Part shown: positions 11,062-63,816 of the stretch, piece by piece
How the letters are laid out: the number at the start of each line of letters is the position of its first letter
How positions within the stretch are numbered: the first letter of the stretch is position 1
Assembly: GCA_012295275.1 (NCBI GenBank)
Contig: CM022674.1
Location: forward strand, 14,818,001-14,882,000
Source: Chrysomallon squamiferum
Lineage: Eukaryota; Animalia; Mollusca
Reading direction: 5' to 3'
Length of the DNA stretch: 64,000 nt
Notes under the pieces: generated by a model
Database searches by the model: none
The model's input: only the letters and a program-made list of their open reading frames with translations
Told to the model about the DNA's origin: nothing
Translations under genes and position numbers: made by a program

Positions 11062-12559
11062 GAATTATCAGAATTCAGTGTTATTCTCCAAACAAGATAA
11101 CTACCATAGATTCGTCTACGTCATCAACGACATCAACAACAAATCCTAAATCATCATCAACATCATCACCTGAAACAACTAGCCAAGACTCAACAGTGAA
11201 AACAGAAACTGTGAAGCAGACATCAGATGAAAGACAACTGCCAGGTTGTTATGTCTCATTTAATATCCTGTTTTCTGTCTGAGTGCGGGCTGTAGTCCAG
11301 TGGTTAGAGTGATGATTTGTGTATTGATAGGTCCTTTGCATACTTATTGATCTACTGTTTGTGATATGTATTGGTCGACCACTCGTTTATCAAAGACCAA
11401 GGTGTGAATGTTCTGTTTGTGAGAAGGTACATACAAAAACATCCTTTGCTTTTTTCTTTTTCTTTTTTTTTTGTTGTCATACAGAATGAAATTAGACATT
11501 TTACTTACTAAAAAAATTGCTATTGTTGTTATTGTTATTGTTGTTGATGCTGATTATAAATATATTGTTTTGTTTTGTCCTTAGTTGGGGCTATTGGAGG
11601 GGCAACTGCTGGTGCCGTGGTTGTTGTGGTCGCTGTCGTCATAGTCGTCGTTGTATTCAAAAGGTAATGGATATAAATGAATAAATAAATAAATAATAAA
11701 TAAATAAATAAATAAATAAATAAAAAATGTATTATATCTTCTTCTTTTGTTTTAAATTTCAACCAATCATTAATAAGCTAATAAGGTTCAGCTCACTTAA
11801 ATTATTACTGTTTTTAAATGTGCCACAAAAGTAATCAACACATTGAGAAAAATAACAAACACTTTTTTTGCAATCCATTTCAGACGTCGACAAAGAAACA
11901 AACACACAAACAACGTCGACAGAAACGTTACGGAATACTGCAACGTCAACCCAGACACAGAACTTCATACAGTCAACGACACTCACGGACAAACATCTAC
12001 AGCTACCGCAACAGTTATCTGCATCGAAAACGAACTGTACAGTGCGACACACGATGAAGACAATTTTACTTCTCCATCAAACACGTTCTCCTTAGTTGAC
12101 GAAGAAAATGGCGACCCGACTGTGAAAAATCAAGGAAATGATCGGAAGAAGAAGCAAACGGAAAACGAAAACAAAAAAGCTGAGGTAAAGAAAAAAGCTG
12201 AGATAAAGGAAAAAGCTGAGATAAAGGAAACGACAGAATCGAGTGATTATTCTAGCAAACAAACACGTCCACAACAGGACGATGATGCTGGTTTGTACGC
12301 TGCAGTGAACAAAGACAAGAAAGGAAGGAAAGACGTAGGTGCAAAAGATGAAGTCGCCAACGAGCCAGGCGATTTGTACGCCGTCGTTGATAAAAGCAAG
12401 AAGAAGAACAAACGTCCAGCAAAGACAGCGCCCTCTGGTGACATCTACACTCTCGTTCAGAAACCAGACAACTCTCAGAAGAAAGACACAGAAGAAATGT
12501 CTGGAGATATTTACACTGAAGTCAAGAAACCAAAAAAATTAAATAAAATAAAAAAATGA
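11062..12559 (+). CDS. R1: type-I membrane receptor, 3' part (stalk, TM, T1 tyrosine tail); 5' exons lost at the gap
   Basis: Exons: 11062-11244 (IIRIQCYSPNK..S/T stalk..QLP), 11585-11663 (VGAIGGATAGAVVVVVAVVIVVVVFKR) and 11884-12559 (RRQR..TEYCNV..ELYSAT..GLYAAVNK..DLYAVVDK..DIYTLVQK..DIYTEVKK..stop). Phases 1 and 2 are consistent and the frame is open. Confidence 0.8.
11283..11450 (+). mobile_element. Degenerate tRNA-derived SINE (RUDI/V-core-like); related remnants at ~37495-37630 and its inverted copy
   Basis: A-box-like GGGCTGTAGTCCAGTGGTTAGAG head and a 3' TGTTTGTGAGAAGGTACATACAAAAACATCCTTTGCT resembling the V-core TGTGGGATGGTGCATATAAAAGATCCCTTGCT. This match is recalled from memory, not searched. 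Confidence 0.4.
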
Positions 12560-13719
12560 AGTTTTTGCAGATTTTTTCACTGAATGAAGAACTAAATAAA
12601 AATAAAAATAAAAAGGGACGTTCTGGAGAATATTTACAATGAACAAAAAAGTTGATGTTCTGGGACATCTTTAAACAGCAACTACAACAATAAAAACAAC
12701 AAAATAATTGCTGTCATGCTTTAAGACAACTATAAATATAAAGTGCTTTTGCGTGTACTGGAAATAGAGAAACAATCTTTCGCTTAAAATACTACTACTA
12801 TTACTATTACTAATAATATTAATTATAATAATAAAAATCGAACACCCCACTTTTGCAAACTCATTAATTCTGCCTTTCACTTATGCATCTTGGATATTGT
12901 AGGAAGTGGCATCGAATCTCTGTGCATTTTACTATCCAAAGAACACATGTGTTCAGTCAGTATGTACAGATATGTTTAAATTCTAAATTGTATTATGCCT
13001 CTTTTAGAAATGAAATTTTGAATGCAGATGCAGCAACCCTCTTTTGTTATTTTTTTCAGTTTTTTTTCTTTTTTTTGTTGGCTTTGTTTCTGTTTATTCA
13101 AGTTTGTTTCTGAAGTGATCATACAAATGTTAAATGTCGCTGAAAAGACTCGAACGCGTGACCCAGTCTGCCACATAATGGGGATGACTAAAGGGAGACA
13201 TATCTTGCGTGTGTTTATTATTTTGCTTAACAACCTTTAAAGTATCTGTATGTCTGATTCACGAAGGCAAGTAACTAAGTAAATATGGGTGTCTGCCTTT
13301 GTGTGCGTGTCGGTATCTGTGTGTGCGTATGGTTATATATATATACATATATACATGTGTGTGCGTATACAGGAGCATGAATGTATGTGTGTATACATAT
13401 TTTTGTACATATGTATGTATAGATATATACGTATATGTATAATGTATGTATGTATGGATGGATGTACATCTATATACACATGCATGTATGTAAGTATATG
13501 TACGTAAATGTAAATATGTGTTTATGTATTATGTATATATGTATCCATTTACTGTTCTGTGTATGTTTCTATACATACATACATATCTATGTATGTACGT
13601 ATGTGCATTCATTATCTAATTATTTATTTACTTTTTATATCTTCAATCAGAAATACACATATAAAAATACATATAATAATAATAATAATAATAATAAAAA
13701 TCCTAACAACAACAACAAC

Positions 13720-13782
<63 letters not shown>

Positions 13783-14897
13783 ATTAATAATTCTCAAATA
13801 AATATTTGACCACCCAGATTAATCATACGGGTGTGTGAGATCAGATTTCAAGTGTTCGAGTCTTGTCAGCGGCGTTTGAGATTTGTATGATCAAACAGAA
13901 ATAGAAAGCAATACACAGAGTTACTACGTTATAAATTTTATCTCTGACCAATGTGTAATGAAATATAGACAGTAACTCATATATTTATTTAATACAGGAT
14001 TAGTTTAGCATTAAACTTTATTCCAGTTTAAAGGATTACATTTTAGAACTGAATAACAAGGAAATTCAAAGGACTACATTACAGCATTAAACAATGAAAT
14101 GCAGGATTTCTCCTACTTTGTCTCAAACGATATGAATGATACTTTTTCTACAAGTTTCAAAAGATGACTGAACAGTTAACATAGATGCATGAACAAATGA
14201 TTCCGTACGCAGACACACATTCATCCACACCAAAAGAACATCTGTACACCGATTAACCGCATTAAATTGTTTTATCCGTAACTAAAGTGTTATAAAATAT
14301 ACATGTATACAGATACTTGTATACACTCAGTCATGCACCCATGTAATATATCATACCAGTGTTTTCTGTGTCAATACGACATAAATCTTTACAAACAAAC
14401 TTGCCTAACCAGTTTCTATTTTAAATCTGTAGCCACTGTTATTAATACATCACAGGTTTGTGTACTCGATCGAAACGAAAGTTAACTTCCTCGTTTAGTG
14501 TGTTTCGTGCCTTAATGGCGTCTACAAATATCTTCTGAGTATTTATAAAATATGTTCTGTTTGGTTTTCGAAAAGTGATAGAATTGTGTTACAGGATTAA
14601 ACTTTTGGTCATTATTCAAATAATAAAATAAAATTATTAAAATATGTTTTGGTTTAAAGGGAAAATTTAAGGATGAACAATATTGTAATTGAAACGATTC
14701 AGTCAGAGGATTAAGTTAATAAGAAGGATGACATAACAGGACTAAAATTTGTTCCTGTCTGAATGATTACATTTTAGGACTGAATAAATGAGAATTCAAA
14801 TGTGTATATAACAATGAAGCGCAAGATTTCTTATGCTTTGTCTCAGATGATACTTTTTCAACAAGTTTCAAGAGAGTACTGAACACTTTAGACAAAG

Positions 14898-17488
<2,591 letters not shown>

Positions 17489-17854
17489 CACGTGCATTTC
17501 CAAGTCATAGAGGAAAATAAATGAAATTATTAAATAAATAAAAATGTATAAAGAACCTCAAGTATCAAACATTGTTTTGCAAACACAACCAGAAATGAGG
17601 AAAACAGAATTAAACATGTTTTACTGTGTTTAACTTTGCATCATCAACCATTAACAGCAAACTTTTGTCTGTTTGGAAACAAAAGTTTGATATTAATTGC
17701 ACTTTTTCTGGATCAAACAACGCAGTTTGATAAGACGATTATAATATTTACTTCCTATCTGGTGTTGCTTAATTTGTAATAAGTAAAATAAAATTGTAGT
17801 AAAGAAACATGTTCTTAAGTATTTTGTTTTTTACGCACACACACATGCAAGTTT

Positions 17855-18782
17855 ACATCAACGCAACAAAGGTTCTAACAACAGTTTCTGGATCAAAGTT
17901 GTATACAAGTCAGTTAAATAATAACATAAATTTTACTATTGTTTATTATTTAAGCGTCGTGGACTACTCTTGATAATTCAGCTGTTTACAGGAAGGTGTA
18001 GCTCATACTTAAACTTATTTTATATAAAAGATGTGTGCAATAACCCATAGACATGTGCTGAGGTATCGTCCAATAGTATTAAACGTTCACTAAATGAAAT
18101 TAGGTTTACATTTATTTTTACAGTTGCCATCGTTGTTGGCGTCCTAATCGCAGTAGTGTTCGTCGACATTGTTGTTGTTGTTCTTATTGTCAACTACAAG
18201 AGGTAATGTATCTTTTCAGAAGTTTTCAGTAGAAGTACTTTTAGAGGTATAAAACTTCGTGACAGTAGTACAGGTTGAGAATCCCTTATCCGCAATGCTT
18301 GGGTCTGAAAGTGTTTCGGATTTTAGAATGTAAGGAATAGAATATGAAAATTGGATTTAAGACTAAATACACGTTCCATTTATATTTCATTTGCTAATTA
18401 TACAAACTCGCTGAACTTTTTTTTATTTATTTATTTTTTATATTTATAAGAATTCAGTAGTAGTGATAGTAATTATTGATATCATACTCTGTTGTTGTCG
18501 TTGTTTTCTTGATTTTTTTTCCCTTTATGTTATTGTATTACTTTTGTTATTACAGAAGGAGAAGAAAAAAACAGCAGGGAGAGACAACACAATGCAACAA
18601 GTGATGTAAACAACAACCAACATCAACAAGGCACTGAAAGGTACGACGTCTATCTACACATATACCAGGCTCACGACAATCAAGACAGCGAACATTTGCG
18701 ACATAACGATGCTTCACGTTACAATTCTTCTTCAAGTTTCGACGATAGCCACGTTTACCTATAAATCAGTGGAACTACGTAG
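17855..18782 (+). pseudogene. R3: relic with a beta-domain fragment, a TM exon and a disrupted T3 tail
   Basis: About 80 bp (17855-17935) matches 15812-15893. TM exon 18124-18202 reads VAIVVGVLIAVVFVDIVVVVLIVNYKR. Tail exon 18556-18782 has a +1 frameshift in the A-run, an internal deletion and a premature TAA (VYL*). Confidence 0.75.
18271..18430 (+). mobile_element. Truncated Tc1/mariner (Tigger4/MER46-like) MITE end
   Basis: TA-CAGGTTGAGAATCCCTTATCCGCAATGCTTGGGTCTGAAAGTGTTTCGGATTT closely resembles the Tigger4/MER46 terminus (recalled from memory). It sits at the same intron position as the element at 38330. Confidence 0.6.
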
Positions 18783-25123
<6,341 letters not shown>

Positions 25124-26317: not shown

Positions 26318-26379
<62 letters not shown>

Positions 26380-27386: not shown

Positions 27387-27421
<35 letters not shown>

Positions 27422-27613
27422 CACTACTATTACTCCTACTACTATTATTATTAGTATTATTATTATTATTTACGCTCTATTAAACCAAGGACAGGAAGTC
27501 TTCCTTGTTAAACTTACCATAGGAACAACTACAAAAATGAAAGTACATTTTATAGTGTGTGAAATCTGATATAGCATTACAAAAACAAAATAAAATAAAA
27601 TAAAATAAATAAA

Positions 27614-27666
<53 letters not shown>

Positions 27667-27969: not shown

Positions 27970-31696
<3,727 letters not shown>

Positions 31697-33721: not shown

Positions 33722-33775
<54 letters not shown>

Positions 33776-33914: not shown

Positions 33915-33980
<66 letters not shown>

Positions 33981-34324: not shown

Positions 34325-34520
34325 ATGTTTTGGAAACTGGTGACAGTGTGTGTTATGTTCACAGGAAGTGACGTACAAGGTAGGTAAACTGATATTAATA
34401 TGTTGGTGTTTCGAAGAATGAACGTTTTTACATATTATTAAAAGAGAGAGGGATACATAGAGAAAGATAGACAGAGAGAGAGAGATGGGTAAGAGAGAGA
34501 GAGAGTGTGAGTGAGTGAGT

Positions 34521-34585
<65 letters not shown>

Positions 34586-36725
34586 TGAATACAAAACATG
34601 TAGAGCAAAAGAGGAGAAAAATGAAAGAATGAAAAAGGAAAGAAGTACAATAATAGTTTCTTAGAGAGAGACAGATAAACATAAGATGCAGAGAGAAACA
34701 GAGAGGGAGCGAGTGATTATTCTATTAATTTACTCAAAAATAAGAAGATAGAAAAATGTACGAAAACAATTCGCTTGAGAAAATGTTTGTAGTTTCCATA
34801 GAGAAAAAATCAACCTCTCGTTTTCAAGCATTCATGTACGTATGTTCGTATTTATAATTATAACACTTGATGCAAATAATTTGTAAGGTGGAATCTGCGC
34901 TGCCAGACAGATGAACAAAGAGCAAAACAGTGATTCTTAAAACGTGAACAAATGACAATGATTAAACAGTGTCTTTACTATATCACGTTAGAATTATTCT
35001 ATTACTGTTTTTAGATTTTGTTGATTTCTATTACAGCTATTAAGGCTTGTAAAAAGGAATGGACTGCAAATTATCCAGGTACGTGACAAAAATAATATTT
35101 AATTCAGTTAAATATCTGATTATAAAACGTCTTAAGTTTCCGAAGAACTATAATCATAACTATAATTATAATTTTTATTTTTGTTATTAGTAGTATTAGC
35201 CGTATTATTAGTAGTAAGACGGGTAGTGGTAGTCACAGTAGTAGTAGTTGTTGTTCTTAAGGTAAAGATGAGTAGTAGTGGCAGTAATAGTAATAGTAGT
35301 AGAAATGGCGGTTGTTGTGATAGCAGAGACTCTAATGATAATGTTTTGAAGACTTGTTTTTTTTTTTTTTTTGAATGAATAGGATTAGTTTTTTATGTAT
35401 TTATATATATGTGGACAAATGATTTAAACTTTTTTGTTTTCAGTAATAGACATGTGTAATGATGGAGTTATCAGTGGAAATGAAACAGTTTATCTTGATG
35501 CCTTTGTACCAGCCAAATCAACAACAAATTGTATCTGTTCTGTTACTAGAATAGCAGAACATGCAATAACATTTAACTGGGACATAATACCTGACAAAAA
35601 CTGTGGTTCAATGTTATTTTTTAATCATGAAAATCCGGTAAATTTTACCTGCAAAACAACAAATGAGGTAAGACCAGCATATAATAGATACGTGGACAGT
35701 ACAGGATTTAATATCAGTCTAGAAACATCTAATCCAAGCTTCAATATCAATTACTGTGTTGCATTCTATAACACAGAAAACTCAGGTAATAATTCTGGTA
35801 ATAATATTAAGTAATGGTGGTAACAGTAGTAATAAGTGTTGATTTTGTTGTTACTGTTTCAGTTTCTGTTCTTATTATAACAGAAGCATTTATATAAGCA
35901 GGTATGCTACAGTGATAACAATAGTAGTAATACAAATAAGTTGGTACTAGTTTACGAGAAGTAGTAGCTGTAAGAGAAGAGTAATGGAATATTAGAAATA
36001 TCAAATCTCAACTTCAATCTCAGTTATTGTGCTGATAGCATTTTTGTACTTGTTGCTGTTATTGTTGTTGTTGTTGTTGCTGCTGTTGTTGTTAATTGTA
36101 TTAGTGTTTTTTCCTTTTTTCTCTTATTTTTTTGTGGGGGAGGTATGTTATTGTTGTTTTATCTAATTAAGCACTTCTATTACGACTACTACTGCTGCTA
36201 CTACTAACAATAGTGGTAGCAGTAATGATAGTGGGATGATAACAGCAGCAGTAAAAGTAGTGGTGATAAAATTGTCATAGTACTAGTAGTAATTAAAATT
36301 AAAAATAGTATTAATAGTGTAATAATTTCAATAGCTGCAATAATAATAACATACTAGCAATATTAAAGCAGCAGACACATCAGTAGTATTGGAGATAGCA
36401 GTAGTACCAGTAGGAATAGTAGCAGTAGTAGTATTAATAAAGACATAGAAGTAGTAGTAGTAATATTGGTAGTCATGGTAATAGTAGTAGTAGTGGCATT
36501 GTCAGTAGCAGTAGCAGTGCTATTAGAAATGTCAGTAATAGAAGTAGTAGTAGTAGTGGTGGTAGCCCAAGTAATGATTGCTGCAGATGTATTGGTAGCA
36601 GTAGGAGTAGTAACAGAAGTTATACTATTTATTAAACGTGCACTAATAATAATATTAGTAATAATAGTAGTAGTTGCACTATTATTAGCAATAATGATGG
36701 TGTTGATGATGACGACGATGATGAT

Positions 36726-36760
<35 letters not shown>

Positions 36761-38713
36761 CAACAATAATAATACTAGTACTACTACTACTAATAATAAT
36801 ACTACAAATTTATTAGGATTCTTCTTATTAACAGTCATGTAGTATTAATTGTAGGGCTACATTTAGTGATTTATAGTAGTAGTACTGGTTTGTGTTCTTG
36901 TGACTGTAATAGGAATAGCAGTTGTAATAGTAGTAATAGCATTAGCAGCAGAAGTAATAGCAGTAGTTGTAGTAGCTGAGGTAGTAGTAGTAATAGACGT
37001 AGTAGTAGTATCAACGGCTGATGTAGTAGTAATAGAGGTAGTAGTATTTATAGTAATAATAGTAGTAGCAGTATTAGTAGCTATGGTAGCAGCAACAGCA
37101 GTAGTAGTAGTAATAATATTAGTAGCACTAGTAATTTTAGGTAGTAACACTAGTAGTATTAGTCGTGGTAATAGTGGTGGTGATGGTAGTAGTAGTAGTA
37201 GTAGAAGTAGTAGTAGTGATGGTGGTGCTAGTGATATTATAATTAATAACTATAACGTTTAATGCATTCAGGAAGTATCAGAATCCAGTGCTATTCATCA
37301 AACAAGAACACAGCCATAGATTCATCTACGTCATCAACAACGTCTAGCATATTTCGTAGAACATCATCAACATTATCACCTGAAGCAACTAGCCAAGACT
37401 CAACAGTGAAAATAGAAACTTTGAAGCAGACATCAGATAAAAAACCACTACCAGGTTGTTACATTTTATTCTTTTCACAAATCTTTTCTCTGTTAGTGTG
37501 GGTTAGAGTGCTGGTTTTTGACTGATAGTCCATACTTATTTCATATCTGTTATGGTAACAAGTAGTTTATCATAGATCAACGTATGTTCTGTTTGTGGGG
37601 AGATGCATATAAAATGAAATCCTTTCCTGTTATTTGTAGCAGCTTTCTACACGACTGACATTAGCTGCTCTACTTAGTAACTTCAATATTAATGTTATTA
37701 TTGTTGTTTTTTAAACAGAAAATATTACAATTTTGTTTTTCATCCCTTGCTGCTGTTGTTACTACTGTTGATGTTCTTGTTATTGTTATTGTTGTTGATG
37801 CTGATTTTATCACAATTATTATTATTATTATTATTATTAGTAGTAGTAGTAGTAGTAGTAGTTATAATTGTAGTAGAAGAAGTAGTAGTAGTAGTAGTAG
37901 TAATAGTCGTATAAGAACTAATTATAATAAACATATTGTTTTGTACTTAGTTGCGGCTATTGGAGAGTCTGCAACTGGTGGTGTCGTGGATTCACATTCA
38001 ATTATTTCCCGTTCCGAGCTGTTTATGGGAAGGTGTAGCTCTTCCGTAATTTTTGTTTTCCTTTCTTAAAACCTCTTTATACAAACGCTGTGCAATAACC
38101 GATAACGTAGAAATGTGTTGATATATTGTTAAATACTCATGAAATTTTCACTAATTGGAATTGCATTTTCGTTTATGTTTACAGTTGCCATCATTGTTGG
38201 CGTCCTAATCGCAGTACTGTTTGTTGGCGTTCTTGTTGTTGTTCTTACTGTCATCCGCAACAGGTAATGTATTTTCACAGTTGTACAGTAGAAGTAGTTG
38301 TAGAGGTAGTAACATTCATTAAAGTAGTACCAATTGAGAATCCTTTATCCTTGGCAGCGAACATATTGTGTATTTCTGAATTTTTCAGATTTTTGTATAA
38401 TTAAATAGCCTAAGTGTGCGATCTAAGACTAAATACGAGTTAAATTCATATTTTATTTAAAGCTTAACACATAGTGTGCATCCTTTTTTAATTTTTTTTA
38501 ATTTTGTTTTTTTCATATAACATTCTAGTAATTTTTTGCACAAAATATATTTATTATAAAAACTATACGAAAATAAAATATGTCGTTATATATTGTATTC
38601 GGAAATGTTTCAGATCTCGGAATTTTGGATAAGGTGTTCTGACCCTGTAGTAGTAGTTGTTTTATAATAGTAGTAGTAGCAATAGTAAAAAGCAGTAATA
38701 GTAGTAGCAGTAA

Positions 38714-38751
<38 letters not shown>

Positions 38752-39279
38752 ATAGCAGTAGTAGTAGTAATAGCAGTAGTAGCAGCAGCAGTTGTTGTTG
38801 TTGTTATAGTGGTGATATTTTTAGTACCATCAGTAGTAGTAATATTACTGACTACTACTACTAGTATTATTGTTGTTATTCCTTCTCTTGTGTTTTTCCC
38901 TTTATATTATTGTTGTTGTTGTTGCTGTTGTTGTTATTGCAGAAGGAGAAGAAAACTCAAAAATAGAGAATCCAATTCAACAAATGACGTGAACAACGAT
39001 CTACATCAACAAGGCACAGGACGTCAGCTTGATTCAGAACAAAACGTCACTTCTAACATCAGCAACGACAACTATGAACATTTACAACATGACGCTATAC
39101 AGTACGTGAACACACCCCAAAGTGACAGAGAGGGTAACGTCTATCTACACATACAGCAGCCTCACGACAACCAAGACAGCAACTACGAACATTTGCAACA
39201 TGACGACACCTCGCGTTACAACTCACATTCAAGAGTCGACGATAGCCACGTTTACCTACGCATCAGTGGGCCTACGTAG
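34325..39279 (+). CDS. R6: intact chimeric receptor (~345 aa), alpha ectodomain and R1/R4-type stalk with R3-type TM and T3 tail
   Basis: Exons: 34325-34379, 35037-35078, 35444-35785, 37272-37454, 38185-38263 (VAIIVGVLIAVLFVGVLVVVLTVIRNR) and 38943-39279 (..NYEHLQHDAIQYVNT..NVYLHI..SNYEHL..RYNSH..HVYLRISGPT). These sum to 1038 nt, open. The model requires skipping the broken TM exon at 37951. Confidence 0.8.
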
Positions 39280-39945
39280 ACGTCTTTGACCTGTATAACC
39301 ATCATGACGTCAGTTATAAACACACAATATAAATAAAAATCTAGTAAAGATGTTTTCTCTATGTTATTATTAGATATTAATGTTATTTCCTCTACTTGGT
39401 TTATATTGTACATTTCGTACGGAGATTTTGCTGTTATTTCTAGTGTAAGAAATAATAATGATGCTGACAAAGAAAGGTTCTCTTTAGTCTATAATTACAT
39501 CTCCTAAAGAAACGCAGCTTTATATTTCGTATGACTATTATTAATATGTTTCTCACATGTTTCTGAGACAGAAACCGCTAACTTACATCCAGTGATTATG
39601 ACGTAATTATGATTATTTCCAAGGTGAACGTAATTCTGTGTACGAGATCAGTCGCTAATGTCACCAGTAACGTATAACATAAAACATTTCTGTGACATCA
39701 CAGTTAAAATGAACATTGTAAATGAAAGCTGTGTTTATTTATTTTTAGATATTAAATTATTTTTGTTTAATCTTTGTTATTTCTTTTTTTTTGTTACTTT
39801 AAAAGTATTCTTTCTGTAAATATAACTACACTCACATATATACTTACACACATACATACAACAACAACAATTACTACTACTGCTACTACTACTACTACTA
39901 CTAATAATAACAATGATAATAATAATAATAATAATTCTATTATTA

Positions 39946-39994
<49 letters not shown>

Positions 39995-41709
39995 CATTAT
40001 TATTTTTATTATTGTTGTTGTACAAAATTAAATTGTTCAACAGGAATAATGACATACCTCTGGACAATTAAGAACTAAAGACACTTAATAATGTTTGTAC
40101 TCATGGAGGGTTTTCGTTATATATATATATATATACATATATATGAAGAAGTGATTTATTCTAAATTACGCTTAGAGTTACCTATCGTTCGTTGACACGT
40201 CAAATATAAAACAATTGTTATGACGTCGACAGAGTGACGTCACTGTCTTAACAGCTCAACTAAATAGAAAGAAAGAGAATAACCAAGGTACTTCTGATCT
40301 ATTGTTTTACAACCAATAACAAAATGAGGTAGTGTAGGTACGAGAAAAATAATCGGGTTTGGAAGAAGCTACTACAGACGAGAGCGGTGAGTTGATAAGT
40401 AAACGTTAATTTATTTATTTATTATTATTATTATTATTTAGAATAAAAAGAAAAGAAACAAAAGAAAAAAGTACTTGTTAGTAATGTCTTTAGATATAAG
40501 ATTTATCCTGAATATTTTCAACGGTCCAATATAACACAGCCTTGGTGGACCGTGTCTTTCATAGATTTTCAGGATAAAGTCGAAATGTTCAGACAGAAAT
40601 CAGTTACAAAGAACATTGTCCTATTGTAAGATGTATCTGTCCTGCGTTTTTTGTTCCTGTTTTTTGTTGTTGTTTTTTAGCCATCTGTAAACACAGATAC
40701 TCATAATTTCAGCTGTTTTGTGTTTTACCCAAAGTGTGAAATAAAAAGGACTTTATCCATTTTTTTACTGCAGATCCGCTTTCGTTCAGGGCAAGGTGAC
40801 TTTTGAGATATCAAAAAGAACTTAAGTTCGACCGAGAAAACTTAAGATTATAAATATTAACAATACACAAATACACATGCTTACATAGTTTTGCTAATAA
40901 TAACACACTGAAATGCAGGATTAGACAAACAGAAAGACACAAACGTGGATTGCCAAATATATTCACTTTTCTTTTCTATCATTATCATCATTATCGTCGT
41001 CATCATCATTATAATCATCATCGTCATTACAACTAGTATATAGTAATAGTTTTAGTAATAGTACTAATATAACTACTTGTGACAGCAGCACTAGTACTAC
41101 TATTACTGCTACTACTTCTACTACTATTACTACTACTACTATTACTACTACTACTTCTACTATTATATAATTATTTTCTTAAGCCTGCAAATCTCTACTT
41201 TTCAAAGATCTCACACCTCAGTTTTTATTTACGCTTGGTGAGTAGGTAGTTTACTTCAACTAGGAAGTTCTTCCTGAATATTCTCAACTACAACATTTAC
41301 AATGTTTGGCTGGTGATTTCTTTGTGTTGTGGCTTCGTATATTTGTGTGGCCAGTGTAAAGCTGACTGTGTAATAATATATTAAAATGTCAATCACAGAA
41401 AGTGGGACGAACTATTACCTTCAACACTGTATGATCTTTTCCATCTTCCTCCTTTTCTCTTGCGATATTGTATGCGTGTTTATATGTCTGTACGTACGTA
41501 ATAATATCTGTATGTATGTATGTCTGTCTCTGTTTACATATGTATGTGTTTGCGTGTGTATACACACTCTTTCTGCATTTGTATAATTTTATAAGCGTAC
41601 AGTTTGTAATATGTTATCTAACCCACCATTTCTCTCAACATTCTCCTGTATCTGGACCGTAACAACAAAGAAAAGGCGAAAATGAGAACACGATTATTAG
41701 AGAAAAAAA
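36996..41709 (+). repeat. Left arm of a ~4.7-kb near-perfect inverted repeat
   Basis: Reverse complement of ~44724-49443. Mirrored identical ORFs appear in the track (37262-37525/48914-49177, 41386-41586/44848-45048, 39252-39470/46972-47190). Confidence 0.95.
38330..38647 (+). mobile_element. Tigger-like MITE with degenerate TIRs and TA flanks (inverted copy at ~47794-48111)
   Basis: Left end TA-CCAATTGAGAATCCTTTATCC; right end GGATAAGGTGTTCTGACCCTG-TA; located in the intron between the TM and tail exons. Confidence 0.55.
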
Positions 41710-42080: not shown

Positions 42081-42196
<116 letters not shown>

Positions 42197-42204
42197 TTCT
42201 ATAC

Positions 42205-44350
<2,146 letters not shown>

Positions 44351-46438
44351 ACTAGGACGTGTCTACCTTTCCAACGTCGATCCTCTGTTCATTGTCTGAT
44401 ATTTGATATCTTATAAAGTCGCACGTTCTTCCTGGTCTTTCAACATTCAGTATTACTCAATTTATTGAAACACTAAAGACTAATCTTTATAGTCTTGGTG
44501 TACATACAATCTAGATACATTTACAGCTCACACACGTTTTGACAATTTTGTTTAAGGAGTATATATACATGTATATACTAGTATATGTGTCTTTAACTGT
44601 GTTGTATCCACTTCTGAAGTGCGTCCATAAATAGAGCTGTGTAGAAAAAAAAAATAACAACAACAAATCCCGAGTGAAAAGCAGGTTTTTCACTGTTTTT
44701 AGCGTTAACAATATATATATATTTTTTTTTTCTCTAATAATCGTGTTCTCATTTTCGCCTTTTCTTTGTTGTTACGGTCCAGATACAGGAGAATGTTGAG
44801 AGAAATGGTGGGTTAGATAACATATTACAAACTGTACGCTTATAAAATTATACAAATGCAGAAAGAGTGTGTATACACACGCAAACACATACATATGTAA
44901 ACAGAGACAGACATACATACATACAGATATTATTACGTACGTACAGACATATAAACACGCATACAATATCGCAAGAGAAAAGGAGGAAGATGGAAAAGAT
45001 CATACAGTGTTGAAGGTAATAGTTCGTCCCACTTTCTGTGATTGACATTTTAATATATTATTACACAGTCAGCTTTACACTGGCCACACAAATATACGAA
45101 GCCACAACACAAAGAAATCACCAGCCAAACATTGTAAATGTTGTAGTTGAGAATATTCAGGAAGAACTTCCTAGTTGAAGTAAACTACCTACTCACCAAG
45201 CGTAAATAAAAACTGAGGTGTGAGATCTTTGAAAAGTAGAGATTTGCAGGCTTAAGAAAATAATTATATAATAGTAGAAGTAGTAGTAGTAATAGTAGTA
45301 GTAGTAATAGTAGTAGAAGTAGTAGCAGTAATAGTAGTACTAGTGCTGCTGTCACAAATAGTTATATTAGTACTATTACTAAAACTATTACTATATACTA
45401 GTTGTAATGACGATGATGATTATAATGATGATGACGACGATAATGATGATAATGATAGAAAAGAAAAGTGAATATATTTGGCAATCCACGTTTGTGTCTT
45501 TCTGTTTGTCTAATCCTGCATTTCAGTGTGTTATTATTAGCAAAACTATGTAAGCATGTGTATTTGTGTATTGTTAATATTTATAATCTTAAGTTTTCTC
45601 GGTCGAACTTAAGTTCTTTTTGATATCTCAAAAGTCACCTTGCCCTGAACGAAAGCGGATCTGCAGTAAAAAAATGGATAAAGTCCTTTTTATTTCACAC
45701 TTTGGGTAAAACACAAAACAGCTGAAATTATGAGTATCTGTGTTTACAGATGGCTAAAAACAACAACAAAAAAGGGAACAAAAACGCAGGACAGATACAT
45801 CTTACAATAGGACAATGTTCTTTGTAACTGATTTCTGTCTGAACATTTCGACTTTATCCTGAAAATCTATGAAAGACACGGTCCACCAAGGCTGTGTTAT
45901 ATTGGACCGTTGAAAATATTCAGGATAAATCTTATATCTAAAGACATTACTAACAAGTACTTTTTTCTTTTGTTTCTTTTCTTTTTATTCTAAATAATAA
46001 TAATAATAATAAATAAATAAATTAACGTTTACTTATCAACTCACCGCTCTCGTCTGTAGTAGCTTCTTCCAAACCCGATTATTTTTCTCGTACCTACACT
46101 ACCTCATTTTGTTATTGGTTGTAAAACAATAGATCAGAAGTACCTTGGTTATTCTCTTTCTTTCTATTTAGTTGAGCTGTTAAGACAGTGACGTCACTCT
46201 GTCGACGTCATAACAATTGTTTTATATTTGACGTGTCAACGAACGATAGGTAACTCTAAGCGTAATTTAGAATAAATCACTTCTTCATATATATGTATAT
46301 ATATATATATATATAACGAAAACCCTCCATGAGTACAAACATTATTAAGTGTCTTTAGTTCTTAATTGTCCAGAGGTATGTCATTATTCCTGTTGAACAA
46401 TTTAATTTTGTACAACAACAATAATAAAAATAATAATG

Positions 46439-46493
<55 letters not shown>

Positions 46494-47162
46494 TAATAAT
46501 AGAATTATTATTATTATTATTATCATTGTTATTATTAGTAGTAGTAGTAGTAGTAGCAGTAGTAGTAATTGTTGTTGTTGTATGTATGTGTGTAAGTATA
46601 TATGTGAGTGTAGTTATATTTACAGAAAGAATACTTTTAAAGTAACAAAAAAAAAGAAATAACAAAGATTAAACAAAAATAATTTAATATCTAAAAATAA
46701 ATAAACACAGCTTTCATTTACAATGTTCATTTTAACTGTGATGTCACAGAAATGTTTTATGTTATACGTTACTGGTGACATTAGCGACTGATCTCGTACA
46801 CAGAATTACGTTCACCTTGGAAAAATAATCATAATTACGTCATAATCACTGGATGTAAGTTAGCGGTTTCTGTCTCAGAAACATGTGAGAAACATATTAA
46901 TAATAGTCATACGAAATATAAAGCTGCGTTTCTTTTAGGAGATGTAATTATAGACTAAAGAGAACCTTTCTTTGTCAGCATCATTATTATTTCTTACACT
47001 AGAAATAACAGCAAAATCTCCGTACGAAATGTACAATATAAACCAAGTAGAGGAAATAACATTAATATCTAATAATAACATAGAGAAAACATCTTTACTA
47101 GATTTTTATTTATATTGTGTGTTTATAACTGACGTCATGATGGTTATACAGGTCAAAGACGT

Positions 47163-51452
<4,290 letters not shown>

Positions 51453-53045: not shown

Positions 53046-53108
<63 letters not shown>

Positions 53109-53502
53109 TTAAAAAGTTTAAAAATTAGCGTTTACTTATCAACTCACCACTCTCGTCTGTAGTAGTTTCTTCCCAAACCGATTATTTTTCTCGTACCTAA
53201 ACTACCTCATTTTGTTATCGGTTGTAAAACAAGAGATGAGAAGTACCTTGGTTATTCTCTTTCTTTCTATTTCGTTGCGCTATTCAGACAGAGACGTCAC
53301 TTTGTCGACGTCATAACAATTGTTTTATATTTCACGTGTCAACGAACGATATGTAGCTCTAGGTGTAATTAACAGTAAATCACTTCTTCATATATATATA
53401 ATCAAAACCATCTGTCAGTACAAATGTTATACTGTAAGTATCTTTAGTTCTTAATTGTCCAGAGGTATTTCGTTACTCCAATTGAACAATTTAATTTTGT
53501 AC

Positions 53503-53567
<65 letters not shown>

Positions 53568-54202
53568 CAACAACAACAACAATAATAATAATTAGTAGTA
53601 GTAGCAGTAGTAGTAGTAGTAGAAGTAGCCTTGTTATTGTTCTTGTTGTATGTATGTGATTGAGTATATGTGTGAGTGTAGTTATGTTTACACAAAGGAT
53701 ATTTTAAAGTAACAAAGAAAGAAATAACAATATAAACACAGATAAAATAAACATAATTTAATATCTAAAAATAAATAAACACAGCTTTCAGTTACAATGT
53801 TTATTTCAAATGTGATATCACAGAAATGTTTTATGTTATACGTTACTGGTGACATTAGCGACTGATCTCGTACATGGAATTACGTTCACCTTGAAAATAA
53901 TCATAATTACGTCATAATCACTGGATGTAAGTTAGCGGTTTCTGTCTCAGAACATGAGAAACATATTAATCATAGTCAAACGAAATATAAAACTGAGATA
54001 TAATTCTAAACAAAAAACAGAACCTTTCTTTGTCAGCATCATAATTATTCTTTACACTAGAAATAACAGTAAAATCTTCGTACGAAATGTACAGTGTAAA
54101 CAAAGTAGAGGAAATAACATTAATATCTAATAATGACATAGTGAGAACATCTTTACTCGGTTTTTAATTATAATGTGTGTTTATAGCTGACGTCAAAGAC
54201 GT

Positions 54203-56217
<2,015 letters not shown>

Positions 56218-57667
56218 TTTGGGCTAAAATATTCAGTATTCTCTCTAAGCTTGTAGGAAAAGCAAAAACACCATTCGTATCGTTTGAGACACAGCATAAG
56301 AAATTTGGCAATTCGTTATTTAATGCTGTGATTTAATACGTTGAATTTCAGTCCTAAGATGCAATCCTTTAATTTGTTATTACGTCCTTCGAATCACACC
56401 ATTTAATTTATACTTCTGATTTAATCCTTTTAATTAAAATAGTGTTCATTATTCATCCTTCAAACTACAAAAAAAATATAATCTTGTTATTTTATAATTT
56501 GAATCACAACAAACAGCTTAATCCTGCTCAGACCTGAAACAGTTATATACGAAAACCAAAAAGAAAATATTTTATTAATACACATACAATATTTGTAGAC
56601 GCCATTAGGGCAAGTATCTGTATACATGTACATTTTATAACACTTTAGTTACGGATAAAACAATTTAATGCAGATAATATGTGAAAATACGTCATTTCTT
56701 CTTTGCTCGTCCAAATGTCAAAGGTCGCTGAAAAGAGTCAAATGAGTGATCTAATCTCTCTCTGAACAAAGCTATATCTTATGTTCATGTACTACACGTA
56801 GTCAAATATTTCTTTAGAACTTAATATTTCGAGTGAATGTATGTCTGATTTAAGTACTTAATAAGTAAATAGGTGTTCATTTATGCATCCATGCATGTGT
56901 GTGTGTATATATATATGTATGTATGTATGTTTGTATATATGTATGTATTATATATGTATGTATATTTGTATGTATATATGTCTGCATATATGTTTCTATG
57001 CGTGCACGAATGTATAGTATATACAAACACCCTCATATGTATGCAATAAAGTGTACACACACACACATACAAACAAGTATATATATACACATATACATGC
57101 ACGCATTTGTATATATGTGTGCGGATTCATTTTGTTTTATGGAATTTTTTTTTAAAATAATTTATTACAGTTTCATGTACAGAGATACTTATAGATGAAC
57201 GTAATGAATATGAATACAACAGTATGTTTCTTCAACATGAAACTTAAATAAAAAGTAAAAATGGAACATCCACTGGTTAGAAAGGGATTGTGTATGCCTG
57301 TGCGTGTGTGCGTGTGCGTATAAAACAACATACTTAAGAACATGTATCTATCTTTACTACAATTTTATTTTATTTATTACAAATAAAGAAACAGCAGATA
57401 GCAAATAAATATTAAAATCATCTTATCAAACTGCGTTGTTTGATTTAAAATAGTGCACAGAATGTCAAACTTTTGTTTGCAAACAGTCAAAAGTTTGCTG
57501 TTAATGCTTGATGCTGCAAATTTAAACACAGTAAAACATGATTTATTCTGTTTTTCTCATTTCTGGTTGTGTTTGCAAAACAATGTTTGATACTTCAGTT
57601 TCTTTATACATTTTTATTTATTTAATAATTTCATTTATTTTCCTCTGTGACTTGGAAATGCACGTGC

Positions 57668-58901
57668 TCTTCGTTCGCGTTAGACGGAACGTTGTAATAC
57701 TCAGCTGTGTTGCACTGTACGTTGTCCGTGACATTGACGTCGTTGACGTCAGTAGGTTTCATGTCTAAGTAAACGTGACCGTCGTCCACGTTTGATGAGG
57801 TGTTAACGTACTGATCATGTTGTAGATGTTCGTAGTTGTTCTCAGTGTTGTCGCTGTGACTGACGTTCTGATTTTGAACAGAAATGTTCTGAGGATTATA
57901 CTGACTGACATCAGTGTTTTCATAATCATTTTCATTTCTCTGTTTGCTTTCTTTCCTGTTATGTCATCCTTCTTATTATACGATTTAATTTAATCCTCTG
58001 ACTTAATCGTTTTAATTACAATATTATTCATCCTTTAAATTTTCCCTTTAAACCAAACCACAATTTAATTATTTTGTTTTGTTATTTGAATAATGACAAA
58101 CAGTTTAATCCTGTAGAGACGTAACACAATTTTATCACTATTCAAAAACCAAACAGAAGATATTTTATAAATATTCATAAGATATTTGTAAACGCTATTA
58201 AGGCACGAAACACACTGAACGAGGAAGTTAACTGTTTCGCTTCTATCGAGTACACAAATCTGCGGTGTATTAATAACAGTGGCTATAGATTTAAAATAGA
58301 AACTGGTTTGGCAAGTGTGTTTGTAAAGACTCATGTCGTATTGACACAGAAAACACTGTTAAACCTGACTACCCACAACAGAAGGTTTGATATATTACAT
58401 GGGTACATGACTGAGTGTACAAGTATCTGTATACATGTACATTTTATAACACTTTAATAGGGATAAAACAATTTAATGCAGTTAATCTGTGAAAACACGT
58501 TCTTTTCTACTTTGCTCTTCGAAGTGTCAAATGTCGGTGAAAAGACTCAACTGAGTGACCTAATCTCTGACTAAACAAAGCTATATCTTATCGTCATGTA
58601 CTACAGGCAGTCAAATATTTCTTTAGAATTTAATATTTCGAGTGAGTGTATGTCTCATTTAAGTACTTAATAAATAAATAGGTGTGCATCTATGCATGCA
58701 TGTATGTTTATATGTTTGTATGTATGTTGGTATGTATGTATGTATGTTTGTTTATATGTGTGTAGTATGTATGTATATAATATGTATGTATGTATGTATA
58801 TTTGTATATATGTATGTATATATGTCTGCATATACGTTTGTGTGCCTGCACGATTGTATAGTATGCGCAAACACCCTCATATGTATATTAAAGTGTACAG
58901 A

Positions 58902-58933
<32 letters not shown>

Positions 58934-60055
58934 TACAAACAGTTATACATGTACACATACAGATGCATGCATTTGTATATATGTGTGCGGATGCACTTTT
59001 TTATGGAAGTTTTGTTTTAAAATATTTATTACAGTTTCATGTACAAAGATACAAATAGATGTTTGTTGAACATGAAAATTAAATAAAAAATAAAAATGGA
59101 AAAAGTGACTGGTTAGAAAGGGATAGCGTATGCTCGTGTGTGTATGCATATAAAACAAAATACTTAAGAAACATGTCACTGTCATTGTCTCTGGCAGTCG
59201 TTTACTTAGACAATTAGTCTGTCACTAAATATGTCAGTCAGAAGAGCTGTAAGTAATAAATAAGTAAGTATGTAAGTAAATCAGTCAAGAATACAGAACA
59301 TCAGTCAGTAAGTTAATTCAGTGAGCTGATCTCTGAGTTAATCAGTCAATCAGTCAATTGATCTGTCGGTCGTTTACCTTTGTTGTAAGTCAGTTAGTCT
59401 AGAATAAACAAAAAATAATAATAAAAAAACGATGAAGAAAGAAAGAAAGAAAACAGGAAAGAAGGAAAGAAAGAAAGAAAGGAAAAAATATTGAAATTAC
59501 TGACCTGTAAATAAAAGTATTCAAAGCTATAATGATTAAAAAGAAAGAAAAAAAAAAATAAAACGAATAAAATAGATTAAATGAAAAATAAATTCATTGT
59601 TAATAAAAAAATAAAAAATACTTTTACATGGGAAAGAATTTAACGTTGATCTTTCTTTTTGGCCTTCTATGTTCAACGTCGAAGTTACATTTCCATCACT
59701 GCAGGCGCTACGTCTTCCCGATGACATTGCCAAAGTTGTGATTGTGCTACTTTTAGAAGTCGCAGATAAACTAACGTCTGAGATGGTTGTTGAGGTTGTC
59801 GTACTTTGTGGAGTTGTGCTTGAAGTAACTTCGGACTTTGTTGAACTTACAGCTGCAAGACTGCTATTTGGCGCAATACACTGGATGCTCAAATTTCCTA
59901 ATATATACATATTTATTTATTTATTTATTCGTAGGAATATCAATAAATAATACATTATCAGTTATTGAAACTATGACATATGTTTTTAATTTATGGATAG
60001 ATAAGGCATGAAATAAATACAGTTCAATAAAATAAAATAAAACCTGATAATATTC

Positions 60056-60101
<46 letters not shown>

Positions 60102-60486
60102 GAAATTATTTCGATAATATTGCAATAAATATATTTACCCGTATATTGAAAAATATTTATTTAGAGGCAGAAAGTAACATCAATTGATGGAAAGTCTGTT
60201 TTTAAATTAATAAAGAAACTTATGTTATTAAGTAGTCGCGAATATCCTGTTCCGATTGGTTCCGATGTCAAAGTAAACATTATGTTATTATTTAACTGAC
60301 TTGTATACAACTTTGATCCAAAAACTGTTGCTGGAACCTTTGTTACGTTGATGTTAACTGGACGAGGTTGATCGTTTACTTCTTTAACCTTACAACGGCA
60401 GGGAATGTTTGTTTTGGCAGGTACAAAGGCTTCAAGATATAATCCTTTACTCCCGATTTTAACTTCATTTTTACACATCTGTACAA
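57668..60486 (-). pseudogene. R10: beta/T2 pseudogene (R2 paralogue)
   Basis: Domain exon 60486-60139 has TAA at 60161-60163; stalk exon 59897-59628; orphan T2 tail ~57956-57668 lacks an acceptor and its stop has changed to GAG. Signal, micro- and TM exons were not found. Confidence 0.8.
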
Positions 60487-60831
60487 CTGAAATATAAAAG
60501 TGAATACAAATACATCATTTGTTTCCTTGTGCTAAATCAAAAACACCGTTCGTATCGTTTGCGACAAAGCATAAGAAATTTGACATTTCATTATTTAATG
60601 CTCTCGTTTAATACTTTGAAATTCAATCCTATGATGCAATCCTTTAATTTGTTATTACGTCCTTCGAATCAAACCATTTAGTTTATACTTCTGAGATAAT
60701 CCTTTTAATTAAAATATTGTTCAGCCCGTTATTTATCCTTCAAACTACAAAAACAAAATTAATCCTGTTACTTTAAAATTTGAATCACAATAAACAGCTT
60801 AATCTATCCTGCATAGACGTAAAACAGTTCT

Positions 60832-60909
<78 letters not shown>

Positions 60910-61355
60910 GACGACACAGAGAGATACATATATATATATATATACACAGAGAGAAAATGAAAGAAAGAAAAGCTAATAATTGAGAATAAAAAAATAATAA
61001 TCCGATTCAACGACAGAGAGAGACAGAGAACTGAAGACAGAGAGAAAAAAGATAAAGATGTAATGCATGTAAAAAGAAAAAGAAGAGATATTTACAAAAA
61101 GTAATTCACTTGAGAAAGTGTCTTTATCCAGTCTTCAGAAGTAAAAAACTTCTCAGACATGTTGATAATTATAACAGTAGTTGTAAATAATTTGTCAGTT
61201 TGATGTACGCTGAGATGCACATACACAAAGAGACATGCAATCAGACTTGAAGCAAGAAAAAGTAAGAAGTATTAGAAGGAGATATGACGTCCTTATTATA
61301 TCAGGCATGACGGTTTTAAGTGTTCTGTTTTATTTTTGTTTTTTTCCTGTTACAG

Positions 61356-63816
61356 CTAACAAGGCCTGTAAAAACCAAAATACTGGAAATTATCCAGGTA
61401 CGTGATAAAAATAATATTTAATTCAGTTTTAATTCAGTTAAGGGTATTATTATAAACTCTTTTATTTTCCTAAGAAGAACTATAACTATAATTATAACTG
61501 GAATTATGATGTCTTTTTTTTATTATTAGTAGTAGTATTAAAGTAGTAAGAAGGATAGTGGTAGTAGTAGTAATAGTAGTTGTAATAGCGGTAGTAGTGG
61601 TAGATATTGTATGTGGTAGCTGTTTTGATTTGGTGGTGGTTCTAGTTAATAGGTGGTGGTTGTAGTTATATTTGGTAGTTGATGTAGTGACTGTGGTGGT
61701 ATTGGTTGTCGTGGTAATGTTTTCAACACATGTTTGTTCTTGTTTTTGTAATGTGTACGATTTGCTACGTGTTTATGTATGTGAAAAAATTATTTAAACT
61801 GTTATTTTTTATTTTGTTTTCAGTCATAGGCATGTGTAATGATGGAGTCATCAGTGGAAATGAACGAGTTTATCTTGATGCCTTTGTACCAACCAACATA
61901 ACAACAAAGTGTATCTGTTCTGTTACTAGAACACCAAGATCATTGATAACAATTAACAGGAATATAATACCTGACAAAAACTGTGGTTCAATATTATTGT
62001 TTAATCATGAAAATCCCATAAAATTTTCCTGCGAAACGAAAACTGATGAAAGACCAGCAAATGTTAGGTATGTGGACAGTACAGGATTTAATATCAGTCT
62101 AGAAACATCTAATCCAAGCTTCAATATCAGTTACTGTGTTGCATTCTATAACACAGAAAACTCAGGTACTAATAATAGGTAATGACAAACGTAGTAATAA
62201 CTGTTAATGTTGCTTTTGCAAAAATAGAAAAAAATTATATTAGCAGTAATTCTACAGTGATAACAAAAGTAGTAATAAAAGAAAGTTGTTACTAGTTTAA
62301 GAGATGTAGCATATGTGGGCGAAGGGTAGTGCAATGTTAGAACTGAATGTCACCAGCCTAGAAATATCGAATCTCAACTTCAATTTCAGTTATTGTTTTC
62401 CTCTTATTATTTTATTAGTATAATCTTTTTTCCTTTTACAGGTATTATAAGGATCCAGTGTTATTCACCAAGCAAAGCTACCACATCTCAAACAACAGCA
62501 TCAACGACAACAGCTGAGGAAACATTAAAACATGTATTTGACAAATTCACCTCAGTTTTGACGAAAACAAACAGTTCACAAAAGATAACAACTCAACACA
62601 TGCCAATACTGCTTCCTGAACAAGAATCTTTCCCAGGTACTAAATCATGTTCTTATGTTTTATTTGTGATGTGGAGGCCTTATACTGATTTAATAAAAGT
62701 ATGAACTCATTTAGTTATATAAAATATGTTATGTACATGTACATATATATCGGTGTATATACACACACAAACATATATACATACATACAAACATACACAC
62801 ATACATATACAAACACACATATATGCAGATTGCTTAAATTATTTCTGTCTGAATGAGCTTAACGATGGAATTTATTTTGTATATGTCTTTTCTAATAAAC
62901 TTAAAGTTATTTATAAAAATATCAGGACATTCGCTCTTTTCTTACTGTTTTCATTGTTACTACTACTAGTAGTGTTACTGCTACGTCTACTACTACTACT
63001 ACTACTACTAATATTAGTATTACTGTTATTACTCTCAGTTGCTGCTGTAGCTGGTGTTGTTGGCACTTTAATAATACTTGTCGTGGTATCTGCCGTAGTT
63101 ATCATCTATTCAAGGTAACACATTTAAATCCATAAACTAATGTGGTAGCTTCAAATTATAATTTCACACACGACTACAGCCATAATCAGTTTTCCAGTAT
63201 AACTTCAAGAACAATGTTTTCAATGTAGTAGCATTAGTAGTATTAATATTAGGAGTGGAAGACCTAGTGGCCATAGTAAAAGTAGCAACAGTGGTTATTA
63301 TTACCGATACTATTATTATTGTTATTACTACTAATCTACTACTACTACTACTTCTACTAGAATTGTTCTTGTTGTTATTTTTTCTTTTTGTTACCGTTAT
63401 TGCGTTGTTGCCGTTGTCGTTGCTCATTGTGTTGTATTTTTCCTCTATATTATTACTGTTGTTGCCGCTGCTGTTGTTGTTATTGCAGAAGGAAATCAAA
63501 ACGCAAAGAGAGAGAACCCAATGCAGCAAATGACATGAACAACGATCTACATCAACAAGGCACTGGACGTCAGCCTGATTCAGAACAAAACGTCACTTCT
63601 AACACCAGCAACGACAACTATGAACATTTACAACATAACGCTGTGCAGTATGTGAACACACCCGACAGCGACAATGACACTACCGTCTATTTACACATAC
63701 AGCAGCGTGACGACAACGAAGACAGCAACTACGAACATTTGCAACATAACGACCCCTCGCGTTACAACTCACATTCAAGTGTCGACGATAGACACGTTTA
63801 CCTACACATCTGTTGA
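61356..63816 (+). CDS. R11: alpha ectodomain with T3 tail; exons 2-6 open but no signal-peptide exon found upstream
   Basis: Exons: 61356-61397 (NKACKNQNTGNYP), 61824-62165, 62442-62636, 63039-63114 (VAAVAGVVGTLIILVVVSAVVIIYSR) and 63489-63816 (..NYEHL..QYVNT..TVYLHI..SNYEHL..HVYLHIC-TGA, slightly shorter than paralogues). Confidence 0.62.

Follow-up and report, generated by a model that had tools for sequence, protein, structure and literature searches.

The window analysed here, 64,000 nucleotides of Chrysomallon squamiferum contig CM022674.1, is AT-rich, rich in microsatellites and carries a cluster of tyrosine-tail receptor genes that spans approximately 53 kb (11062–63816). Snapping exon ends to AG/GT and translating the products resolved eleven units, termed A to K, of which A−F and K lie on the forward and G−J on the reverse strand (Table 1). 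They represent an undescribed gastropod receptor family whose tyrosine tails, of two shuffled kinds, are combined with a predicted divergent CUB fold. The family was not found described in the open-access literature searched, where supplementary gene-family tables could list the genes under other names, and the portions consulted of PMC7895826, PMC7736800, PMC7142155, PMC13218726 and PMC10855680 do not mention it.

All units are variations of one exon order, in which a signal exon is followed by a cysteine micro-exon of 36–42 nt, a cysteine-containing domain exon of 321–348 nt, a Ser/Thr stalk, a transmembrane (TM) exon and a tail exon. The splice junctions of all units are predictions from sequence. 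Units D, F and H (467, 345 and 340 aa) form complete six-exon frames free of internal stops, with identical exon end phases (1,1,1,1,2) and GT..AG borders in 15 of 15 predicted introns, which bears out the six-exon plan that a first-pass annotation had recovered on both strands. The same annotation had counted at least 11 receptors; eleven units with a common exon plan are indeed present, but only these three are complete while six (B, C, E, G, I and J) are broken, and functional copies can number at most three to five. A hidden Markov model (HMM) of the family, applied to the six frames of the window, returned nine domain copies. Tail exons or their remnants are found ten times, and the eight that can be read through contain 6–8 tyrosines each. 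The earlier description as a tandem, fast-turnover family with kinase-free tyrosine tails holds; taken as a whole, the first-pass observation is borne out in part, and so is its interpretation.

Table 1. Receptor units and inverted duplicate of the cluster, in window positions.
Feature	Strand	Span	Exons and parts	Remarks
Unit A	+	11062–12559	stalk 11062–11244; TM 11585–11663; tail 11884 to stop 12557–12559	class 1 tail, YxxV array
Unit B	+	14898–17488	signal 14898–14958; micro-exon 15195–15230; domain 15680–16027; stalk from 16296; TM 16719–16797; tail 17194–17488	class 2 tail
Unit C	+	18124–18782	TM 18124–18202; tail	fragment: TM exon and shortened, frameshifted class 2 tail only
Unit D	+	21516–25091	21516–21570; 22247–22288; 22655–22996; 23708–23893; 23996–24074; 24392–25091	
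Unit E	+	27970–31696	domain 29691–30032	pseudogene: signal exon shortened, domain exon with TGA at 29855
Unit F	+	34325–39279	34325–34379; 35037–35078; 35444–35785; 37272–37454; 38185–38263; 38943–39279	
Inverted duplicate, left arm		36996–41709		F 3' half and intergenic DNA
Unit G	−	42205–44341	signal; micro-exon; domain; stalk 42513–42205	domain exon without first third; own Thr-rich stalk
Inverted duplicate, right arm		44725–49443		H 3' half and intergenic DNA
Unit H	−	47163–51452	51452–51392; 50615–50574; 49819–49499; 49167–48985; 48257–48179; 47499–47163	
Unit I	−	54203–56217	signal; micro-exon; domain; TM; tail	pseudogene: B-type signal, micro-exon, truncated domain; E/K-type TM and class 2 tail
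Unit J	−	57631–60486	domain; stalk 59897–59628; tail	pseudogene: B-type domain with TAA at 60163; B-type tail
Unit K	+	61307–63816	61307–61397; 61824–62165; 62442–62636; 63039–63114; 63489–63816	

The ectodomain had been regarded as an unrecognised fold, a view that no longer holds, as the predicted structure of a homolog from the gastropod Gigantopelta aegis, a beta-sandwich (jelly-roll) of approximately 110 residues, superposes on solved CUB domains. CUB chains lead the 50 structural matches listed, including those of the spermadhesins PSP-I/II and aSFP, of MASP-1/2, C1r/C1s, Kremen1 and TSG-6 and of cubilin and neuropilin, and no immunoglobulin (Ig) fold is among the top matches, although such a gap would not on its own speak decisively against the Ig family. 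The ESM Atlas places the domain in CUB clusters at 0.92–0.93, which we treat as a lead only. We predict the ectodomain to be a divergent CUB fold on this basis. Its divergence is considerable: the family domain is 5–16 % identical to known CUB domains, finds no match to Pfam CUB or, searched with the family HMM, to PDB sequences, and features four additional conserved cysteines, two of which are supplied by neighbouring exons, one by the micro-exon and one by the start of the stalk exon. At the curated Pfam cut-off, no domain was matched in any of five window domains, 18 homologs and 17 alignment rows, in agreement with the earlier statement that Ig, C-type lectin and fibrinogen signatures are missing. 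CUB domains contain two disulfides, Cys1–Cys2 and Cys3–Cys4. Within the family domain, the cysteines at positions 43 and 73 (numbering of P0012) are present in 26 of 26 rows, those at positions 97 and 113 in 24 of 26, both being lost together in B and J; the B-type domain subtype is devoid of the third and fourth CUB cysteines. The calcium-binding subset of CUB domains has a conserved Tyr/Glu/Asp/Asp site. The family alignment shows no comparable acidic set: position 57, towards the start of the domain, is the one acidic column that comes close to invariance, and neither a conserved Tyr-Asp after Cys3 nor a late Asp is found.

The tails fall into two classes. Class 1 tails (A and D in the window, P0007 and P0022 in G. 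aegis) are long and repeat a YxxV motif after acidic and hydrophobic residues (D/G-hydrophobic-YxxV), the G. aegis versions extending, unlike A and D, to two further tyrosine motifs. Class 2 tails (B, C, E, F, H, I, J and K in the window, P0001, P0004, P0008, P0015, P0021 and P0023 in G. aegis) carry YEHL, YVN and YLxI/V motifs. Across species, class 1 tails of A and D match those of P0007 and P0022 with E-values of 7e-21 to 1e-10 and class 2 tails of B, F and K match P0001, P0008, P0015 and P0023 at 1e-13 to 9e-8, whereas the best match across classes only reaches 0.054. As tails group by class across species, both classes are older than the species split. The ectodomains behave differently, being 74–77 % identical among D, F and K and 73–81 % among P0007, P0022, P0008 and P0023 regardless of tail class, as opposed to 33–38 % between the two species. 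A 15-row ectodomain tree, which has long branches and leaves out units G, I, A and C as well as proteins whose tail could not be assigned to a class, was rejected when forced to unite the three class 1 ectodomains, with a log-likelihood (lnL) 141.7 lower and a p-AU of 2.7e-37.

This re-pairing is directly visible as exon-level mosaics in F, H and I. Unit F joins a D-type ectodomain and an A/D-type stalk to a C-type TM exon and class 2 tail and even retains a broken A/D-type TM exon remnant at 37951, while in unit H a (CT)n tract marks the join between a G-type ectodomain and a copy of the F stalk, TM and tail. In both species, one cluster thus holds ectodomains of a similar kind that lead to different signalling ends, as seen in paired receptors, and this discordance between ectodomain and tail strengthens the analogy with paired immune receptors drawn in the first-pass annotation.

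Several lines of evidence indicate that the unit sequences are more than chance open frames. Annotated G. aegis proteins match window domain and tail exons in tblastn searches with E-values down to 1e-14, and the domain exons of the pairs D/F and E/K are free of gaps next to introns of similar divergence (8–13 %) that hold 2–4 gaps. Compared with shuffled sequences, Yxx[ILV] is enriched in the tails of D (p 0.0017), F (p 0.005) and K (p 0.0015), the enrichment in the B tail not being significant (p 0.06). Among the class 2 tails of E, F, I and K, 22 of 24 motif columns are invariant as compared to 43 of 78 other columns (p 0.0007), and the tyrosine motifs of this class persist between species.

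Relatives of the domain escaped word-indexed sequence searches and became accessible by an HMM scan of 1.84 billion representatives, which yielded 18 proteins at E-values up to 0.001, the domain being present in 17. One of the 18, P0018, was dropped as a chance match. A deeper profile gave twelve matches, eight of them new. The named relatives comprise twelve G. aegis genes, including LOC121390012, LOC121390013, LOC121390466 and LOC121390530, and seven Haliotis proteins from three species, with a further five ENA records; database labels read uncharacterised, mucin-like or serine-rich only. The family may extend beyond these matches, as the ESM Atlas holds a 63-member cluster at 0.95 for one G. 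aegis domain. Biomphalaria proteins are not among the homolog search matches. The G. aegis and abalone proteins are true homologs with a common architecture of domain, stalk and TM. In G. aegis, where nine of the twelve genes lie on 46,388,186-base contigs and probably share one chromosome, tails of either class occur. Abalone members contain one to four domain copies per protein, and all 15 abalone domains fall on one side of a 100/100 branch of the domain tree, the window being likely closer to G. aegis than to the abalones. In P0009, P0011, P0020 and P0021 from abalones and G. aegis, a block of micro-exon, domain and stalk start is repeated in tandem two to four times per protein, which the symmetric phase-1 exons permit. 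The tail of P0001 (LOC121390466) holds five copies of a YEHL-containing unit and 14 tyrosines, a case of motif amplification by internal duplication. The ENA records P0002 and P0010 are family members on contigs of equal length (653,483 bases) and probably form another cluster.

Starting from this anatomy, the two conserved tail classes, their re-pairing and the turnover of the genes, we propose that the tandem family of kinase-free, single-pass CUB-fold proteins works as a paired recognition system, probably in immunity, a proposal to which we give about even chances. The CUB-fold domain, raised off the membrane by its mucin-like stalk, would bind an outside ligand, presumably of microbial or glycan nature, and receptor clustering would allow a Src-family kinase to phosphorylate the tail tyrosines, many of which come after acidic residues. 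Judging from their motifs, class 1 tails (A and D) may recruit SHP- or Csk-type inhibitors and class 2 tails Syk/Shark- and Grb2-type activators. Unequal crossing-over and conversion would re-pair similar ectodomains with both tails, as the mosaics suggest, and shed copies as pseudogenes. Six broken copies out of eleven are as expected in birth-and-death families, and the Hydractinia Alr gene models, in the sections of PMC9546547 available to us, likewise include 12 pseudogenes. Precedents for other steps are described in excerpts of the literature: conversion keeps the ectodomains of CD300A/C alike under divergent signalling (PMC12447643), ITAM-Syk signalling (ITAM being the tyrosine-based activation motif of immunoreceptors) operates in oyster haemocytes (PMC6994640), so that the downstream parts exist in molluscs, and parasite resistance in Biomphalaria maps to clusters of single-pass genes (PMC13712769). 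A bolder version appears doubtful to us, namely that vent-snail lineages independently evolved a vertebrate-style paired activating and inhibitory complex on a CUB scaffold, with an abalone-type mucin-like protein gaining two ancient tyrosine tails and exon shuffling matching ectodomains to both, as a rheostat for symbiont versus pathogen; some animals of these lineages house bacterial endosymbionts.

A number of observations speak against the paired recognition proposal. On the structural side, the lead of CUB over other jelly-roll sandwiches amounts to about 1 Z unit, and the structure was predicted for the G. aegis homolog and not for a window protein. The canonical ITAM, Yxx[L/I]x6-9Yxx[L/I] as defined in the consulted part of PMC9546547, is absent at a spacing of 6–8 from all eight tails read; at spacings of 6–12 the sole pair has a spacing of 10 (F, H, I and K), and YEHL-x6-YVNT fits the ITAM spacing but has a Thr at +3. 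The consensus of the immunoreceptor tyrosine-based inhibitory motif (ITIM), [I/L/V/S]xYxx[I/V/L] in the same source, is missing from the A, B, D and J tails and occurs once each in F, H, I and K, which also carry DxYxxL and YVN; in the class 1 tails of G. aegis, it is found at three of 11 tyrosines in P0007 and two of 11 in P0022. As window class 1 tails hold no ITIM while class 2 tails of F, H, I and K hold one, the inhibitory and activating labels could be wrong or even reversed. Tails of 28–31 residues with no or one tyrosine in four of five abalone members measured imply that the family did not always signal via tyrosine tails. The ratio of non-synonymous to synonymous changes (dN/dS) is close to 1 across all exon types, positive selection (dN > dS with a confidence interval clear of zero) was seen in none of 37 usable comparisons and purifying selection is indicated in one of them, while in A/D the test for motif conservation falls short of significance (p 0.16). 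The first 75 codons of the domain are approximately three times more variable than the last 38, a split that was picked post hoc. Furthermore, unit H may be an assembly chimera. The two 4.7-kb inverted arms that include the 3' halves of F and H are 99.8–99.9 % identical (0.1–0.2 % substitutions, 12 gaps) and go back either to a very recent event or to an artefact of the assembly; the mosaic pattern of F, I and G. aegis is independent of H and stands even if H is chimeric. Finally, the vertebrate receptors that combine CUB domains with tyrosine tails, DCBLD1/2 and CDCP1, are, as far as the sources consulted describe them, scaffolds in adhesion and growth.

The last point leads to an alternative that we consider unlikely, a non-immune scaffold for adhesion or growth signalling whose CUB domain would engage matrix or a ligand of the animal itself. 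Its tail would be phosphorylated by Src and Abl kinases and gather adaptors such as Grb2, with the two tails tuning the output by tissue. Vertebrate DCBLD1/2 and CDCP1 exist as one or two conserved gene copies, which contrasts with a cluster in which six of eleven copies are broken, ectodomains are 33–38 % alike between two gastropods and tails are re-paired in both. The predicted CUB fold would suit such a scaffold, as would the missing canonical ITAM and the resemblance of abalone members to mucin-type surface proteins, and published excerpts describe DCBLD1/2 as scaffolding receptors that bear CUB domains and have conserved tyrosines in their tails (PMC6029619) and CDCP1 as an activator of Src kinases (PMC4761645). 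YxxP, which defines DCBLD signalling, is however not among the listed tail contexts. A role in gamete or species recognition, in which quickly evolving CUB proteins exposed on eggs, sperm or the reproductive tract would bind glycans or protein partners, was weighed as well and seems quite improbable: the spermadhesin rows lie within 1 Z of the CUBs from complement, Kremen and TSG-6, gamete adhesion would not be expected to involve two alternative tyrosine tails, significant positive selection was not detected in the comparisons above, and spermadhesins are secreted and tail-less.

An allorecognition locus with allele-specific binding between individuals, as in Hydractinia Alr or Botryllus fuhc/FcoR, is very improbable in our view, and no observation points to allorecognition in particular. 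Solitary snails, from which the homologs stem, are not known to show natural fusion or rejection behaviour, and the top structural matches lack an Ig fold, even though the layout is Alr-like with one domain per exon, a single TM pass, tyrosine tails and many pseudogenes (PMC9546547, in part) and FcoRs mix ITIM, hemITAM and core YxxI/L/V motifs in the portion consulted of PMC12065747. We also see little probability in the array being in decay, partly inflated by assembly error and by now largely or wholly without function in this genome. The dN/dS values near 1, the six broken units and the near-identical 4.7-kb share of F and H would all be compatible with decay. Judged by eye, the copies of an upstream satellite vary chiefly in homopolymer length, a pattern suggestive of unpolished long reads, and some frameshifts may therefore be sequencing errors; deletions in the broken units are less easily put down to this cause. 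Against decay stand the three complete open reading frames with canonical splice sites, the conservation of cysteines and tyrosine motifs both inside a species and from one species to the other, indel-free exons next to gapped introns and the twelve annotated homologous genes in G. aegis.

Judged by domain plus tail, DCBLD and CDCP1 are the closest known proteins, being CUB-bearing, kinase-free type I receptors with tyrosine-phosphorylated scaffold tails. They differ, according to the sources available in part, by additional extracellular domains, the YxxP/CRK motifs in DCBLD and conserved low copy number; the CUB, LCCL and discoidin layout of DCBLD1/2 with YxxP (PMC6029619) is not that of the window units, which consist of one domain plus stalk, and sequence similarity to DCBLD1/2 or CDCP1 was not found among the profile matches to proteins or PDB sequences. 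The family is a member neither of the vertebrate paired receptors nor of Alr or FcoR, the resemblance being one of genomic pattern and layout. KIR, LILR, Siglec and Ly49 are vertebrate paired receptors, and so is CD300A/C. According to excerpts of PMC12447643, CD300A/C share with the window family the tandem cluster, the pseudogenes and similar ectodomains on different signalling ends that are alike within a lineage. The vertebrate receptors are built on Ig or C-type lectin domains as opposed to CUB, and in the window family both classes have long tyrosine tails and no TM segment of any unit embeds a charged residue for an adaptor. Alr and FcoR are likewise clustered single-pass receptors that carry tyrosine motifs, encode each domain in an exon of its own and show pseudogenes or variation in gene content, but combine Ig/Fn3 or Ig/sushi domains with canonical ITAM, ITIM or hemITAM motifs and linkage to fusion or rejection, as the consulted parts of the literature state. 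Among gastropods, the Biomphalaria clusters PTC1/GRC, PTC2 and LG5R also hold single-pass genes, theirs being variable in copy number and linked to parasite resistance, yet their ectodomains are Fn3, EGF-like, fucolectin or disordered (PMC13712769, in part); in the main text of that paper, “CUB” only appears within reference DOIs.

Known tyrosine-motif recognition clusters of vertebrates, Hydractinia and Botryllus use Ig or C-type lectin scaffolds, and here the same genomic behaviour is found on a predicted CUB fold in gastropods, in a family that domain scans overlook and databases label uncharacterised or mucin-like. Should the two tails signal oppositely, molluscs would possess a paired-receptor system and the design would have arisen independently once more, providing concrete genes to study in host-symbiont or host-pathogen discrimination. 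With the family alignment, such genes can also be given names in the genomes of other snails.

Regarding the individual units, A is open from stalk through stop; its 5' exons are absent from the window, an N gap (10338–10537) lies upstream, and its introns and flanks are homologous to D. The class 1 tail of D holds eight tyrosines, five of them in YxxV, and a short Lys/Glu repeat is expanded relative to A. In B, the stalk is out of frame with the donor position common to B and J and runs into a stop at 16598, so that B appears to be either a broken copy or a secreted form; with the stalk donor skipped, 14898–16600 reads signal, domain, stalk and stop, a possible secreted decoy ectodomain. Unit E is also without the fourth CUB cysteine and shows a frameshift where its class 2 tail begins. 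The exon search of the window found neither a TM nor a tail exon for G and no signal, micro- or TM exon for J, while I has no stalk and a TAA at 54445. Unit K, with D-type ectodomain, class 2 tail and five exons, is probably intact provided that the in-frame ATG at 61307 is used, since its 343 aa are open only then. This ATG exon sits in the equivalent of intron 1 of D and F and encodes a hydrophobic leader. This may be a signal peptide that a polypyrimidine tract came to supply once the signal exon had been lost at the head-to-head junction of J and K.

Upstream of the cluster, the satellite occupies 5760–10337 with approximately 12 copies of a GC-rich unit of about 377 bases and reaches the N gap, where a scaffold join just before unit A is possible. 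Further upstream, 79–4284 on the forward strand contains exons of a separate cysteine-rich gene, with ShK-like cysteine exons at 79–186, 1541–1684 and 4174–4281, the last ending in TGA, and an EGF-like exon at 2701–2811; one of these four exons gave a weak ShK domain-like Pfam match below the cut-off (E 0.03).

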